A stretch of DNA of 64,000 nt, taken from IMG/VR virus record IMGVR_UViG_2728369393_000007; one strand, 5' to 3'. The DNA is from a virus (taxonomy: Duplodnaviria > Heunggongvirae > Uroviricota > Caudoviricetes). Position 1 is the stretch's first letter. Every line of letters begins with the position of its first letter. Below are positions 1 to 6,000 of the stretch, piece after piece. The position numbers were made by a program.

Positions 1-3000
1 GAGTGCTGGTGGAGCCGGAACCAAAAAGCATGCGTAATCTGCCGTCCGGGGTCGTTCCTGCCGTTCGCCAGCCGCTGGCGGAGGATAAATCATTACTGCC
101 GTTTTTCAGTAACGAACGGGTGATTCGTGCTGCTGGTGGTGCTGGTGCATTGTCTGACTGGCTGTTGCGCCATATTAAATCCTGCCAGTGGCCACACGGC
201 GATTATCATCACAGTGAAACCGTCATACATCGTTACGGTACCGGCGCAATGGTGTTGTGCTGGCACTGCGACAACCAGTTGCGTGACCAGACATCCGAAT
301 CACTCGAGCAACTTGCTCATCAAAACCTGTCAGCATGGATGATTGACGTCATCGGTCACGCAATAAGCGGTACGCAGGAGCGTGAATTATCTCTGGCTGA
401 ATTATCCTGGTGGGCGGTCCGCAATCAGGTGGCGGACGCGCTACCGGAAGCGGTATTACGTCGTTCGCTGGGGTTGCGTGCGGAAAAAATCCGCTCAATG
501 TACCGTGAAAGTGACATCGTACCGGGAGAGCAGACCGCCACCAGCATACTGAAGCAGCGCACAAAAAATCTTGCGCCGCTGCCTCACGCCCACCAGCAAA
601 ACCCGCCACAGGAAAAGACGGTGGTCAGCATTGCCGTTGATCCGGAGTCACCGGCTCAGTATCTCCAGCGCCAGAAACCACAACGGGAAGAGATGCCTGT
701 ATACACGCGCTGGGTAAAAACGCAGAAATGCATGACGTGCGGTAATCAGGCAGATGATCCGCATCACATCATTGGTCATGGACTGGGAGGGATGGGAACA
801 AAGGCTGATGATTTGTTTGTTATTCCGCTGTGCCGTAAATGTCATAACGAACTGCACGCCGGGGTAAAAGATTTTGAAGAAAAACACGGCAGCCAGCTGT
901 TGTTGCTGATTCGTTTTTTAATGCACGCGAGAAATTCGGGTGTCCTGAAGTGGAAAGCATGAATGACTGAACGGATAGAATTTGTTTTGCCTTACCCGCC
1001 GACGGTGAATACCTACTGGCGACGTCATGGCAATACGTATTTCATCTCGGAAGCCGGAAAGCGTTATCGCCGTGATGTGGCGCTAATTGTTCGCCAGCAG
1101 CGGCTGAAATTAAACCTGTCCGGAAGGCTGGTGATAAAGATTATTGCAGAGCCACCGGATAAGCGCCGTCGTGACCTGGACAATATCCTGAAAGCACCAC
1201 TGGATGTGCTGACGCATGCCGGACTTCTCATAGACGACGAGCAGTTTGATGAAATCAATATTGTGCGCGGTCAGCTCGTTCCTGGTGGGCGGCTGGGGAT
1301 AAAAATCACAGAACTGGAGTGCGCATGAATAACCACTATTTACAGTTTGTGCGTGAGCAGCTCATTATCGCCACCGCTGATTTGAGTGGGGCAACAAAAG
1401 GTCAGCTTGAAGCCTGGCAGGAGAATGCCATGTTCGATACAGGGCGTTACAGGCGAAAAAAAATCCGGTACCGCGATGAAGTGACTGGAAAAATGATAAC
1501 GCGGGATAATCCACCAATCCCGGGAAAGCAATCGCTGGCGAAGGGGACGTCAATTCCTCTGGTCAGTCCGGTTGAGTTTTCGACATCATCGTGGCGGCGG
1601 GCTGTTCTGTCTCTTGAAGAACATCATAAAGCCTGGTTGTTGTGGTGTTACAGCGGGAGTATTTGTTGGGAATATCAGATCGCGATAACACAGTGGGCGT
1701 GGAATGAATTTAATACTCAATCCGGTACCAGAAAAATTGCTGGGAAAACGCAGGAACGCCTGAAAAAATTAATCTGGCTGGCGGCGCAGGCAGTAAAAGC
1801 AGAACTTTTTGGTGGGGAAGGTTATGAATATCAGGAGCTGGCATTACTGGCGGGAGTGACAACTAAAAACTGGTCCAAAACATTTACTCGTCACTGGGTT
1901 GCAATGAAACACATTTTTCACCGACTGGATAGTGAGGCTTTATTATTTGTAATGAGAACACGTTCAAAACAAAAGGCGGCATTTTCAAAGCAAAGTGTTG
2001 CAAAAGTAGATTGAAAGGCATATATTTCATGCAAATCTGATATTTTGCCGATTTTGTACGTGATGGCAAAAGCAAACAAAACCCGCCCACAAGCGGGTTT
2101 TTTTGTGCCACTTATCTCGGATAGACATGGTGAATGCGCTGGTGGAGGAGATAAGGGTGATTTTTGTATGCTTGCAACATTGATTTCGTAACGTTATTAT
2201 CCTGCGCCCGGCCCTTTAGCTCAGTGGTGAGAGCGAGCGACTCATAATCGCCAGGTCGCTGGTTCAAATCCAGCAAGGGCCACCAACCGCCACTAGCCAT
2301 CAGGAAAGAGCGTCAACCCTTTAAGTTGAGTGTGCGAGGTTCGAGTCCCCGGTGGTGGTCCATTATCGGTATTCTGCGTTGTTAGCTCAGCAGGACAGAG
2401 CAATTGCCTTCTAAGCAATCGGTCACTGGTTCGACTCCAGTACAACGCGCTACACTTATTTTCCCGGCTCGCTTTTGCGGGCCTTTTTTGTATCTGCGCC
2501 ACGCCCGGCGCATACCAACCACAGAGCCTTTCGGGGGGGGAGCTTACGGAGTGGTCAGTGTGACTTTCTCTGTGGGCAGATCGCTCCCGGGCGTTGGCTC
2601 ACCCACCCAAAGGAACGTCACGATGTTTGGTATTTTTGGTAAAAAAAGCCCGCAGAGCGGCAACGGAAATTAAAAAGTTTGAAAAACGCGATCTGGCACA
2701 GGTGGTGATTAACGCCGCATACCTGGTGGCCTATGCAGATGGTGAATGTGAGGCTTCCTAGAAAGCGAAGATCGAACAGGTACTGCGTAATCAGCCTGCG
2801 CTGTACGCGTTTACGTCAGAAATTAATGCGATTAGCGCAACCATTATCGGTCAGCTGGATACGAACTTTAAAACTGGTCGTCGTGCGGTGTTACGTGAGA
2901 TCGAGGATGTGAAACACGATACGCGTGAAGCGGAAGATGTGCTGGATGTGGCGGTGGCCATTGCGGAGGCAGACGGCGAAATTGAGCCGGAAGAGCGCAA

Positions 3001-6000
3001 GGTGCTGGAAGAGATTGCCGGTGTTCTGGGTCTTCGTCTGGAGAATTACCTGTGACGGTAAAACTGCGCCTGACTGTGGCTGCACTCCTGCTGTTTCTGG
3101 TGGTGATGGTGGATTTCACCAGCAGAATCATGTCGGTGCTGGCGGATGGGGTGCTGGTCTGCGGCATTATGGTATTGCTGTGGCCGGTGATAAAAAGAAA
3201 CAGCCTGCATAATGCTTGATTTTTTTGTTTGCTGTTTATTAAAAACACTTCTGCATGGTGAATCCCCCTGTGCGGTGGGGCAATCAGCAAGAAGGAATAT
3301 GGGGTAATCGCGGATTCAGGTGCTGATACTGAATTCACCGGGAGGCACCCGGCACCATGCTTTGCCACAAAAGTGTTATTTCTGTTTTTCTCAAACTATC
3401 ATCGTTATCCCTTTATTTTCGGCTGCGCATGGCGCGGCCTTTTTTTTACGACCAGCCACTGGCAGATGGTCATCCTGTGATTTGATTCCGCTTCCGGCTT
3501 TTTAACTCTGTTCCTCTACACGGGAGAAATTCGATGTCGATTAAACATTACGATGTTGTCAGGGCGGCGTCGCCGTCAGACCTTGCGGAAAAGCTGACAC
3601 ACAAACTGAAAGAGGGCTGGCAGCCATACGGCGGACCGGTTGCCATTACGCCGTACACACTGATGCAGGCGGTGGCTATTGAAGGAGAGCCACAGGTCGG
3701 CCCTTCATCTGAGCCGGATTGGTACTACGTCATCGTACTGGCCGGGCAGTCCAATGCCATGGCTTACGGTGAAGGGCTTCCGCTGCCGGATTCATACGAT
3801 GCTCCGGATCCGCGCATTAAACAGCTGGCGCGCCGCAGTACAGTGACGCCGGGCGGGGCTGCCTGCAGATATAACGATATTATTCCGGCTGACCACTGTC
3901 TGCATGATGTGCAGGATATGAGTACGCTGAATCATCCGAGGGCTGACCTGAGCAAAGGGCAGTACGGCTGTGTCGGCCAGGGTTTACATATTGCCAAAAA
4001 ACTGCTCCCGTATATCCCGAATAACGCGGGGATCCTGCTGGTACCATGCTGTCGTGGTGGTTCGGCATTTACCCAGGGCGCGGAGGGGACATTCAGCGAG
4101 TCCACGGGGGCCAGTCAGGATTCGGCACGCTGGGGGATGGGCAAGCCGTTATATCAGGATCTGATTTCCCGCACAAAAGCGGCATTGCAGAAAAATCCCA
4201 AAAACGTTCTGCTGGCCGTCTGCTGGATGCAGGGTGAGTTTGACATGAGCGCCGCCACCCACGCACAGCAACCTGCGCTGTTTACAGCCATGCTGACACA
4301 GTTTCGTGCTGACCTCTCCGTGTTTAACGCGCAGTGCCATGGTGGCAGTGCTGCAGATGTGCCGTGGGTTTGTGGTGACACGACGTATTACTGGAAAAAT
4401 ACATACGCTACCCAGTACGACACCGTGTACGGCGGGTATAAAAACAGGGAGAGTGAGGGCGTTTATTTTGTGCCCTTCATGACAGACGGTAACGGCGTCA
4501 ATACCGCCACTAACGCGCCGGCAGAAGATCCGGATATTCCGGCATCAGGATATTACGGTGCGGCATCGAGAACGAATGGAAACCAGGTATCATCAAACCG
4601 CCCGACACATTTCAGTTCATGGGCGCGCAGGAGCATTATTCCGGATCGTCTGGCAACCGCTATTCTGAACGCAGCCGGGCGCACCTCAGCCTTCATCAGT
4701 GGTAAGGCACCGGAAATCAAACCCTCGCCCGGCGGCAACACGCCATCGGGTCCGTCTGCAGATACGTCCGTTCGCACAATCTCCCTGCTGCCGGCAGCCG
4801 GAGAGGCTGCTGCGCAGGGCTGGAGCATTAAAGATGGCGGAATTCAGTTGTCAGATGGTGTATTTAAGATCACCAAGCAGAGCAATAAAACCTGGTCCCT
4901 GACGCATCCGGTGGATGACGCAATTACCCTGCTGACACAGGGCGGCAGACTGACCTGTAAGTTCCGCCTGTCAGGCGCACTGACCAACAATCAGTTCGGG
5001 CTGGGGATTTATCTGTATACGGATGCTCCCGTTCCTGATGGTGTGGCGATGACGGGTACCGGTAATCCGTTCCTGATGTCGTACTTCACTCAGACCACTG
5101 ACGGCAGAGTGAATCTGATGCATCACAGGAAAGCCGGAAACACGAAGCTGGGGGAGTTCGGCGATTACGGTAACGACTGGCAGACGCTGGAGCTGGTGTT
5201 CACCGCCGGCAGTGCCACGGTTACTCCGAAACTGAATGGAGTGGCTGGCCCGGCATTCCAGGTTATAAAAGACAGTCTGACACTGGGACTGAATGCGCTG
5301 ACGCTGACGGATGTTACAAAAAATGCAGCGTATGGCGTTGAGATAGAAAGTCTGATGCTGGAGATAAATGCACCGGCAGCATAATAAAAAAAGCCAGCGA
5401 CTGATCTGAAAAAGAAGACGCTGGCTAAAAGGCCTTATATGTTTGTAGAGACTTATTTTTCACAGACAGCAATGATGCCTGTCAATATATTATCAATATG
5501 CGGATTGTTTCAGTTACAGATGCCTTATTAAGGAAAAAAACAGCCAGCACTGACTTTCGGTGGAGAGGTGCTGGCTCAAAAGGATAGATGTACTTCACAT
5601 GTTGCTTCTATATGGTAGTACATTTTCTGACAGACAGTGACGGATGTTGTCAAGATATTGTGTCATTTATAACCTGAATCAGGGGAGGCCGGAATGTTAT
5701 CTGGCATTTTTAGCAGAGCCTGAATGCCATGATCACGGCTCCCGGCGTTGGCCGTCAGTGGGTGACACTGGCGGCTTTTTTGTTTTTCTTTACTTTCATT
5801 TTCTGTCGGCGGTGACGGAGACATACATCAGATGGAAAAAATCACAACAGGTGTGTCATACACCACGTCAGCGGTGGGGACGGGATACTGGTTACTGCAG
5901 CTGCTGGACAAAGTCTCTCCGTCCCAGTGGGTGGCAATAGGTGTGCTGGGGAGTCTGCTGTTTGGCCTGCTGACGTATCTGACAAACCTTTATTTCAAGA

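Follow-up and report, generated by a model that had tools for sequence, protein, structure and literature searches.

The interval between a late antiterminator gene and the lysis genes of a lambdoid prophage raises the question of what is carried at the position where Stx-converting phages carry stxAB, and of how it came to be there. In the window, by which we mean the whole 64-kb stretch of DNA analyzed, this interval spans 2015-3533, bounded on the left by the antiterminator gene Q, of the Q82 type (1325-2014), and on the right by nanS-p (3534-5384), and contains, in order, a pR'-like promoter, tR', pT, tRNA-Ile2, a decayed tRNA-Lys(UUU), tRNA-Arg(UCU), a terminator, a tciA pseudogene, tciB, and an STnc100/PasD-family sRNA gene with its terminator (plus strand throughout unless stated otherwise). 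It is very probably a moron (cargo) slot, the one that opens the late operon in a degraded lambdoid prophage of an EHEC/EPEC-type E. coli; the prophage is stx-negative, and its cargo is tciA-tciB rather than stxAB. The features that place it in this class are a Q gene immediately before it, accompanied by a pR' promoter and a tR' terminator recognized by sequence, cargo flanks homologous to the flanks of stxAB, and nanS-p with an S-R-Rz lysis cassette downstream. An initial sequence-only reading had likened the Q-like gene, the tR'-like terminator, the tRNA cluster and nanS-p to the architecture of Stx phages, and all of these were found where it had placed them, with homology in both flanks. 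The closest complete genome, CFSAN004176, is 100% identical over 1300-5500 and is annotated by RefSeq with the same gene order; such an arrangement is frequent and has been annotated before, so that the finding, though correct, is ordinary. Marks of decay elsewhere in the prophage comprise an IS600 within terL, capsid and portal genes with frameshifts, and a truncated J, although part of the structural genes that RefSeq labels 'frameshifted' could reflect long-read sequencing errors, which makes the extent of decay less certain.

The 229-residue product of Q is assigned to the Q82 type (PF06323, E=1.1e-91; PHROG 304, E=3e-108; RefSeq 'bacteriophage antitermination protein Q') and shares 73% amino acid identity with the Q82-like Q of phage 434. 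A consensus scan placed a putative pR'-like late promoter (TTGCAA-17-TATATT, 1998-2026) over the end of Q, and the block that includes it and the initially transcribed region is conserved in phage 434 and in PP2 of strain E2348/69, downstream of their Q82-like Q. The intrinsic terminator tR' follows at 2078-2108 (terminator scan), with a 10-bp GC-rich hairpin, AAAACCCGC-CCACAA-GCGGGUUUU, and then U7; the fold of 2033-2110 has an energy of -24.3 kcal/mol (z=-2.9). By analogy, tR' would end a leader RNA of ~75 nt, the counterpart of lambda 6S RNA and of StxS, the short pR'-tR' RNA that works as an sRNA in Stx phages (PMC7547250). In a lysogen, pR' at the end of Q would be expected to fire and its transcripts to halt at tR', leaving this leader. 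Once Q is made, RNA polymerase modified at pR' would pass three terminators, namely tR', the tRNA terminator and the sRNA terminator, and after this read-through the cargo, nanS-p and the S-R-Rz lysis genes would be transcribed. Promoter activity, sRNA production and Q-dependent read-through are predicted here from the sequence and from homologous phages.

Downstream of tR', the consensus scan detected a pT-like promoter of the tRNA genes (TTGCAA-17-TATTAT, 2172-2200), which aligns with the site annotated in 933W as 'pT putative tRNA promoter' and at which homology to 933W starts. ARAGORN called three tRNAs in the cluster, of which the first and third reach the Rfam tRNA model. The former, tRNA-Ile2 (ileZ, anticodon CAT, 2210-2285; ARAGORN; Rfam tRNA, 72.5 bits; RefSeq tRNA-Ile), is identical to 933W ileZ at 76 of 76 positions, and the latter, tRNA-Arg (argO, anticodon TCT, 2376-2450; ARAGORN; Rfam tRNA, 68.1 bits), matches 933W argO at 72 of 75. 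The middle gene (2287-2362) was called by ARAGORN only, gave no Rfam tRNA match at E<=1 and carries no RefSeq annotation; relative to the annotated tRNA-Lys of strain eco-241 it has a 1-nt deletion in the D-stem and a C-to-T change in the acceptor stem. Judged by this comparison, it is a decayed copy of the tRNA-Lys(UUU) annotated in other strains, and a paralogue of the Stx-phage argN, with 60 of 77 positions identical to 933W argN and compensatory changes in the anticodon stem. The block has ileZ and argO from the Stx-phage set of three functional tRNAs (ileZ-argN-argO; CAU, UCG, UCU), with a middle anticodon of TTT where Stx phages have argN(UCG). It closes with an intrinsic terminator (2466-2489, terminator scan) that is conserved in JLK-2012 and in 933W ('terminator upstream of the stx genes') and forms the left edge of the cassette at ~2500. 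With a separate promoter (pT) for the tRNA genes and a separate terminator for the sRNA, both kinds of RNA could be made without induction.

Searches of all 64 kb for the toxin genes gave a best E of 0.085 by tblastn with Stx1A/B and Stx2A/B (a 13-aa match) and a best E of 0.23 by blastn with stx1AB and stx2AB. These are chance-level matches, and the stxA and stxB that a Stx-converting phage has between Q/tRNAs and the lysis genes are absent from the window, as had been expected of a slot described as free of toxin genes. Cassette boundaries, mapped against 933W, a Stx1a phage, JLK-2012, phage 434 and the Stx2a prophage of CFSAN004176, fall at ~2500, right after the tRNA terminator, and at ~3235, at the sRNA start. 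On the left, 2172-2500 aligns at 87% to the pT-ileZ-argN-argO-terminator block of 933W, with 933W homology stopping at ~2500-2511; on the right, two segments (3235-3281 and 3331-3360) match the STnc100 sRNA found immediately 3' of stx2B and of stx1B. The flanks are also common to the Stx2a prophage of CFSAN004176, and the synteny with Stx-phage late regions anticipated by the sequence-only reading is real. Both the Stx2a phages 933W/Sp5 and Stx1a phages such as YYZ-2008 have the same order of Q, pR'/tR', pT-tRNA, terminator, cargo, STnc100, nanS-p and holin-endolysin-Rz. The cargo itself differs, comprising 1.37 kb of stxAB in Stx phages versus 0.73 kb of tciA'-tciB in the window, and Q is of the 933W type in 933W and of the Q82 type here.

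The first cargo gene, tciA (2623-3055, start at 2623 or 2627), is indeed the disrupted TerB-like gene that had been suspected: RefSeq annotates it with an 'internal stop', and in place of an intact ORF of ~143 aa there is a TerB domain match (PF05099, E=8.4e-8) on a C-terminal fragment. Relative to the intact tciA of JLK-2012, GAG is replaced by TAG at 2759-2761 (codon 46 of 143), and the A-run at 2641-2647 is longer by one A, which shifts the frame by +1 near the start. Upstream of tciA, the consensus scan yielded no promoter. The same TAG-interrupted allele is common to O55:H7, O157:H7, O26 and O145 prophages at >=97% identity, most copies also having the second lesion, while JLK-2012 and SCU-104 have intact alleles (~92% identical). 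The tciA lesion is most likely of old origin and has passed from prophage to prophage across several serotypes. Between the pseudogene and the intact allele dN/dS is 0.08 (0.08 upstream and 0.07 downstream of the stop), a low value which implies that the tciA lineage was under constraint until recently. The second cargo gene was initially read as a possible small membrane ORF with a GTG start near 3055; it is a real conserved gene, tciB (3052-3219), whose GTG at 3052 overlaps the tciA stop. Its intact 55-aa product is a membrane protein with two hydrophobic stretches, matches the DUF3927/TciB family at full length (PF13064, E=1.7e-16, profile positions 2-50 of 53; PHROG 1470 'TciB-like', E=1.8e-29, 1-54 of 54), and is identical to the tciB product WP_000216649.1 annotated in O157:H7 and O26 strains. 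Its dN/dS versus JLK-2012 is 0.18.

The slot was at first thought to hold only the TerB-like gene and the small ORF; both are present, and an STnc100-family sRNA gene (Rfam RF02076 over 3224-3396) had been missed. With its own terminator this STnc100/PasD-family gene extends over 3224-3447 and forms the right cassette edge (~3235). It scored 100.8 bits against a gathering threshold of 47 (E=8.7e-21, whole-window scan), a fit in which the central part and the 3' hairpin of the model match poorly, the real terminator lying at 3421-3447 (3421-3439 plus U8, terminator scan). The family is also found 3' of stx2B in 933W (207.7 bits) and 3' of stx1B (190.7 bits), and its core blocks are conserved between the window and the Stx phages; compared with the published PasD1 fragment, the terminator of the window sRNA matches and the seed region differs. 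Convergent sRNAs have been reported from moron sites both 3' of stx2B and in further Sp prophages (PMC4104026). The anti-sRNA convergent with STnc100 is AsxR in 933W and AgvB-like in the Stx1a phage, whereas the window contains no such 51-60-nt convergent gene with the conserved 3' region. Neither AsxR nor AgvB (RF02703/RF02702) gave an Rfam match at E<=1 in 1900-3600 or 5300-5900 or at the gathering threshold across the whole window, and local alignment of 933W AsxR and the Stx1a-phage AgvB-like sequence to 3201-5900 returned matches of 8-16 nt only; as a control, both families were detected in the Stx phages used.

Beyond the slot, nanS-p is predicted to encode a 9-O-acetyl-sialic-acid esterase. 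Its DUF1737, SASA and DUF6645 domains agree with the NanS-p sialate O-acetylesterase layout of DUF1737, SASA esterase and C-terminal NanS-p domain, and the protein matches PDB entries 3PT5 (NanS, E=1.8e-122) and 6YP6 (NanS-p, E=1.1e-29), with 53% identity to 933W NanS-p. On the minus strand between nanS-p and the holin gene lies a PasA-type sRNA homologue (5546-5595, the matched fragment only), which matches the published PasA fragment over its full 49 nt, with a single 1-nt insertion. A position between esterase and holin has been described for PasA, as has the recurrent association of TerB, STnc100/PasD, sialic acid esterase, PasA and holin as neighbors (bioRxiv 10.64898/2026.05.13.724894). 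The slot is closed by a lysis cassette (5832-6999) encoding a class II holin, the lysozyme RrrD and an Rz-like lysis protein (RefSeq annotation of identical sequence; ORFs), the holin gene being 88% identical to that of 933W. The DNA is 99.5% identical to phage 434 from 3418 on, and from 3521 on, through nanS-p and holin, 96% identical to Stx1a phages.

Two sets of relatives share parts of this arrangement. JLK-2012 (O55:H7 DEC5E) has the tciA-tciB-STnc100-nanS-p-holin module at 92-94% DNA identity, its homology to the window beginning within the final ~23 nt of the tRNA block, but differs in its intact tciA, in its tRNAs (Asn/Thr/Gly), in a Q of another, shorter type, in the C-terminal end of tciB and in the spacer that precedes the sRNA. 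Phage 434 and PP2 of EPEC E2348/69 resemble the window in the Q82-like Q with conserved pR' and initially transcribed region, and in the succession of tciB, sRNA, nanS-p, PasA region, holin and endolysin. They differ in lacking the tRNA block and tciA, in having a gene for a 247-aa membrane protein before tciB, and in the sRNA upstream of the esterase, which is a PasD variant with the seed UUGUGAG that falls below the Rfam STnc100 threshold, whereas the window copy lies above it.

The sequence-only reading had left two origins open, a stx-negative relative or a phage that had lost or exchanged its toxin cassette. Of 5426 complete E. coli genomes, 807 carry the tciAB module, at 3123 places in all (median of 5 per genome having any). 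The non-Stx phage JLK-2012 has it too, and phage 434 has tciB; among 131 phage records with a TciA homologue, at most three are Stx-named. The supported alternative is a stx-negative relative with a different cassette, an alternative moron, because there is no stx remnant, tciAB is a widespread module of its own, and TciA is almost absent from Stx-named records; of a toxin deletion there is no sign. Homologous recombination at the conserved flanks would most likely have placed the module and spread it among prophages. Descent of this lineage from a Stx-converting phage whose stxAB was lost and swapped for tciAB by cassette exchange is improbable. It would account for the homology of both flanks to Stx phages, the identity of ileZ to that of 933W and the 96% identity to Stx1a phages from 3521, and chromosomal esterase-PasA-holin modules have been argued to be Stx-phage-derived, with stx that 'has been repeatedly lost' (bioRxiv 10.64898/2026.05.13.724894). 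However, the 64 kb searched hold no stx remnant at the protein or DNA level, the Q/pR' module is of the Q82 type and differs from those of 933W and the Stx1a phage, and the non-Stx phages 434 and JLK-2012 have the same architecture. Moreover, the identical slot with the same tciA lesion recurs in hundreds of genomes of several serotypes, also in O55:H7, so that any exchange would date far back and would not be particular to this strain.

Starting from the stx-negative relative with its own cassette, one may ask whether that cassette still serves a purpose. We consider it very unlikely that the TAG allele of tciA and the intact tciB are kept by selection, with a functional truncated TciA peptide or uncoupled tciB, rather than as a passive passenger; the candidate roles may be membrane-level exclusion and lysis-timing control, and if selection did act on tciA'-tciB, an uncharacterized phage module would fill the toxin slot in many EHEC prophages. 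Very unlikely, too, is a working two-gene system for tellurite/colicin resistance or phage exclusion, in which the TAG tciA would be expressed alongside tciB, either through read-through of the stop or in fragments, since the breadth of the TAG allele, the low dN/dS on both sides of its stop, and a tciB intact and identical across serotypes are countered by the early interruption at codon 46, the second lesion in most copies, a dN/dS that mostly reflects history before the stop arose, the lack of an encoded suppressor tRNA (anticodons CAT, TTT, TCT), a PADLOC search of which the best match (E=0.0031, a candidate family) is not a meaningful defense-system hit, and a limited literature search that found no experimental function for lambdoid tciAB.

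The tci names derive from the tciA-tciB-tciC annotation of phage P1, and the function in P1 and in lambdoids alike is annotation only. P1 differs in being non-lambdoid and in having these genes outside any late-operon slot; its TerB-family TciA is 41% identical to the lambdoid TciA (E=1e-22). In some phages a TciB-like small protein is annotated next to TciA (PHROG 632 and 1470).

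A search of the whole 64 kb with Stx1A, Stx1B, Stx2A and Stx2B from an Stx1a phage and from 933W (Stx2a) under permissive settings returned chance matches only at both the protein and the DNA level (best tblastn E = 0.085, over 13 residues; best blastn E = 0.23), bearing out the claim of the sequence-only reading that the slot at 2015-3533 holds no toxin gene. The alignment to Stx phages that it had proposed for locating the cassette boundaries placed the edges, relative to 933W, at ~2500 and ~3235. Homology to 933W ends at ~2500-2511, just past the post-tRNA terminator that 933W annotates as "upstream of the stx genes", and restarts at ~3235, the start of an STnc100-family small RNA. 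Between these flanks 933W carries 1.37 kb with stx2AB, whereas the window carries 0.73 kb with a broken tciA, a TerB-family pseudogene, and tciB, a 55-aa DUF3927 membrane ORF. Both flanks of the slot recur in the Stx2a prophage of CFSAN004176, the closest complete E. coli genome. The Stx1a phage shares the right boundary, with 96% identity from 3521 through nanS-p and the holin gene. The non-Stx phage JLK-2012, with other tRNA genes (Asn/Thr/Gly), has the same tciAB cassette and meets the window sequence in the final ~23 nt of the tRNA block. In phage 434 and the E2348/69 prophage PP2, a Q82-type Q is followed, in the absence of tRNAs, by a different membrane-protein gene and then tciB, an sRNA and nanS-p. 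Thus, with edges defined at the base level, one pair of flanks, the tRNA terminator and STnc100, can enclose either stxAB or tciAB, even within a single strain. These comparisons indicate that the late region is, as judged from its sequence, a chain of modules (Q/pR'/tR', pT-tRNAs, cargo, sRNA, nanS-p, PasA region, lysis genes) recombining at conserved joints.

The sequence-only reading had offered two explanations for the missing toxin, an stx-negative relative or a phage that had lost or exchanged its cassette. The first is supported, in the sense of an stx-negative relative whose cassette is a different one; the locus belongs to a known lambdoid late-region architecture, in a non-Stx phage. 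Nothing supports the loss of a toxin cassette in this lineage, against which stand the lack of any stx remnant, the different Q type and a slot configuration that is old and widespread. At least 80% of the segment 1300-5500 is held by 527 of 5426 complete genomes. The reading of the slot as a Stx-phage-like late region without stx is correct, but the architecture is very common and well annotated, and matters little on its own; all protein genes here are already labelled by RefSeq, and the sRNA families and their neighbourhood are already in the literature.

All the features recognized from sequence alone are present. The Q gene lies at 1325-2014 (Pfam PF06323, E = 1.1e-91; 73% identity to the Q82-like Q of phage 434), and a promoter-like site, the putative late promoter TTGCAA-17-TATATT at 1998-2026, overlaps its end. 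Conservation with phage 434 and E2348/69 PP2 covers the late-promoter block and the initial ~35 bases of the transcript. The proposed tR'-like terminator is present as a hairpin with a U-run at 2078-2108, the predicted end of a ~75-nt RNA (fold -24.3 kcal/mol, z = -2.9). In Rfam, the pR'-tR' leader (2023-2107, plus strand) scores weakly and below threshold, at 21-25 bits, against isrJ, isrK and several attenuator leaders, as would fit a short, terminated transcript like the one from which StxS arises in Stx2 phages; there the short RNA from the corresponding region acts as an sRNA (PMC7547250).

ARAGORN calls three genes at 2210-2450, where a tRNA cluster had been noted. Homology to 933W starts at 2172, at the pT promoter annotated for the tRNA genes of 933W, and extends to ~2500 at 87% identity. 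The ileZ gene is identical to the 933W copy (76/76) and argO differs at 3 of 75 positions; from their anticodons, the slot tRNAs decode AUA and AGA/AGG. The middle gene (2287-2362) has the anticodon TTT, its anticodon and acceptor stems still paired via compensatory changes relative to argN; it has no Rfam tRNA match at E ≤ 1 and is absent from the RefSeq annotation. That it is a decayed argN was rejected, since its counterparts in other E. coli genomes, at 96-97.5% identity, bear the annotation tRNA-Lys. Compared with the tRNA-Lys of strain eco-241 it shows a 1-nt D-stem deletion and an acceptor-stem C-to-T change, and, taken together with the annotated copies, these features identify it, at the level of sequence comparison, as a decayed tRNA-Lys(UUU). 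The window version recurs at ≥99% identity in 222 records.

The TerB-like region, which extends to 3055, is 92% identical at the DNA level to the intact tciA of JLK-2012 and is disrupted, as had been claimed, by a GAG-to-TAG change at 2759-2761 and an extra A in the run at 2641-2647. The same TAG is found in all six sampled copies of ≥97% identity (strain 12690, O157:H7 FRIK2455, O26 RM8426, O145:H28 RM12581, O55:H7 CB9615 and the window), while the extra A is found in all of them except O145, indicating that the TAG arose first; two copies of ~92% identity (JLK-2012 and SCU-104) are intact. A +1 A frameshift as the sole lesion is ruled out by this O145 allele and by a TTG start that restores the frame, and the TAG is the decisive lesion. 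The dN/dS of the pseudogene against the intact allele is 0.08, and 0.07 downstream of the stop, suggesting that the lineage was constrained for most of its history and that the lesion is comparatively recent. One dead tciA allele has thus been copied among prophages of several EHEC serotypes. In the untranslated leader of tciA, a run of eight G at 2525-2540 (TTTCGGGGGGGGAGC) occurs where JLK-2012 has G5TG; such a homopolymer may be prone to slippage or sequencing error.

The possible small membrane ORF with a GTG start near 3055 proved to be tciB (3052-3219), whose GTG, at 3052, overlaps the tciA stop and, by direct reading of the sequence, has a GGAG motif 8 nt upstream. Its product has two hydrophobic stretches and, over its full length, matches both DUF3927 (E = 1.7e-16) and PHROG 1470 "TciB-like" (E = 1.8e-29). 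The gene is intact, with a dN/dS of 0.18 relative to JLK-2012, and O157:H7 and O26 strains have an annotated protein identical to its product. Of 5426 complete genomes, 807 carry the tciAB module, at 3123 places in all; the median among these carriers is five copies. Homologues of TciA are present in 131 phage records, including P1 (41% identity), the origin of the tci names; Stx-named phages make up at most three of these 131, against 218 Stx-named records matched by a separate search. A PADLOC scan of TciA, TciB, NanS-p and Q gave no meaningful defence-system match.

To the right of tciB lies an STnc100-family sRNA that the sequence-only reading had overlooked (3224-3396, plus strand; Rfam RF02076, 100.8 bits against a gathering threshold of 47), with a strong terminator at 3421-3439 plus U8. 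Members of the family stand directly 3' of stx2B in 933W (207.7 bits), 3' of stx1B in the Stx1a phage (190.7 bits) and after tciB in JLK-2012 (107.1 bits), and an alignment of five loci reveals three common blocks: GCATGGTGAATCCCCCTGTGCGGnGGGGC, GAAyTCACCGGGAGGCACCCGGCACCATGC and the terminator. In both Stx phages the STnc100 gene is followed by a convergent anti-sRNA gene, AsxR in 933W and an AgvB-like gene in the Stx1a phage, in agreement with Tree et al. 2014 (PMC4104026); no AsxR or AgvB gene was found beside the window sRNA by the method that, in the control loci of 933W and the Stx1a phage, recovered both. Identity of the window sRNA with PasD was rejected, as it has the terminator of the published EPEC PasD1 fragment in common but not the PasD seed, and we therefore file it as a variant of the STnc100/PasD family, the two having been described as related (bioRxiv 10.64898/2026.05.13.724894).

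The nanS-p esterase gene (3534-5384) was recognized correctly: its product has DUF1737, SASA and DUF6645 domains and matches the PDB entries for NanS (3PT5, E = 1.8e-122) and the NanS-p C-terminal domain (6YP6, E = 1.1e-29). The spacer that separates nanS-p from the holin gene (5385-5831), where PasA is described as lying, contains a PasA-type homologue at 5546-5595 on the minus strand, which matches 49/49 nt of the published fragment with one 1-nt insertion. The sequence published as the PasA target in the 3' end of the esterase mRNA (GAUAGAAAGUCUGAUGCUGGAGAUAAAUGCA) occurs at ~5341-5373. Also in the spacer are another, similar GCCAGC...GCTGGC hairpin and U-run (~5393-5425) and, on the plus strand, a strong terminator at 5750-5776.

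From this anatomy and established lambdoid biology we infer how the slot may be expressed. In the lysogen, by analogy, pR' transcripts would stop at tR', while pT, as its sequence suggests, would drive the tRNA genes; on the analogy of PMC4104026 and PMC8550237, the STnc100-type RNA and PasA may be Hfq-dependent sRNAs. Upon induction, Q-modified polymerase would pass the three terminators of the slot, as in related phages, and read-through would be expected to bring about expression of the cargo, nanS-p and the lysis genes. Between the common flanks, tciB is presumably the one protein gene of the cargo whose product could still be made, nanS-p lying downstream of the cassette.

The segment 1300-5500 matches the CFSAN004176 chromosome (NZ_CP014583.1) at 100%; for O55:H7 and other strains of EHEC/EPEC type the identity is 99.6-99.8%. 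RefSeq gives the gene order in CFSAN004176 as DUF968, RusA, Q, tRNA-Ile, tRNA-Arg, TerB-family pseudogene ("internal stop"), DUF3927 protein, SASA esterase, class II holin, lysozyme RrrD and lysis protein. Farther downstream (9000-27000, corresponding to 5146000-5164000 of the record) this first prophage is decayed, with IS600 in terL, frameshifted capsid and portal genes, truncated J and tail-fibre genes and an integrase pseudogene, and is followed by the T3SS effector genes nleA, nleH1-2, nleF, nleG and espM1. In the record, paa and hokD lie upstream of the window.

The right half of the window (29000-50762; compared with NZ_CP014583.1 5166000-5190303) is a second lambdoid prophage with an integrase, an immunity region, replication genes, DUF968, a short Q-family antiterminator (~49200-49580) and a DNA methyltransferase. 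In CFSAN004176 the next genes of this prophage are tRNA-Ile/Arg/Arg, stx2a (with the A subunit in two pieces and B intact), nanS-p and a holin gene. The window tracks this genome, except for one flipped ORF, to ~50762, where it departs inside the methyltransferase gene, ~480 bp before the tRNA genes and ~840 bp before stx2a. Since the window exits the second prophage upstream of stx2a, its source, despite the lack of stx in the window, is probably an Stx2a STEC. An stx-negative strain as the source of the whole window was rejected because the closest genome has an adjoining Stx2a prophage. A window free of stx therefore does not imply a strain free of stx, the toxin genes lying in the neighbouring prophage of the closest complete genome.

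Beyond the departure point, the tail region is found elsewhere in the assembly: 50762-64000 (tape measure, J, tail fibre, nleC) matches CFSAN004176 658090-644781 on the opposite strand at 99.4%, so that two prophages far apart in the RefSeq assembly are joined in the window. This may reflect a large inversion between prophages, a related strain that was assembled differently, or chimerism of the window itself. The flipped segment at 48277-49182 (906 bp) is the exact reverse complement (100%) of record 5185758-5186663, most of a DUF968 gene, and in the window forms a complete minus-strand ORF, from ATG to stop, of 301 aa. As no inverted repeats flank it, a site-specific inversion seems unlikely; a difference between assemblies, or an artefact, may be responsible. 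In the early/immunity region of the second prophage, close to Rha and ash-family genes, gathering-level Rfam matches place isrK (43875-43950, plus strand, 50.2 bits) beside a C4 antisense RNA (43975-44062, plus strand, 84.4 bits), a pair that resembles the c4-ant antirepressor control module of the P1/P7 type.
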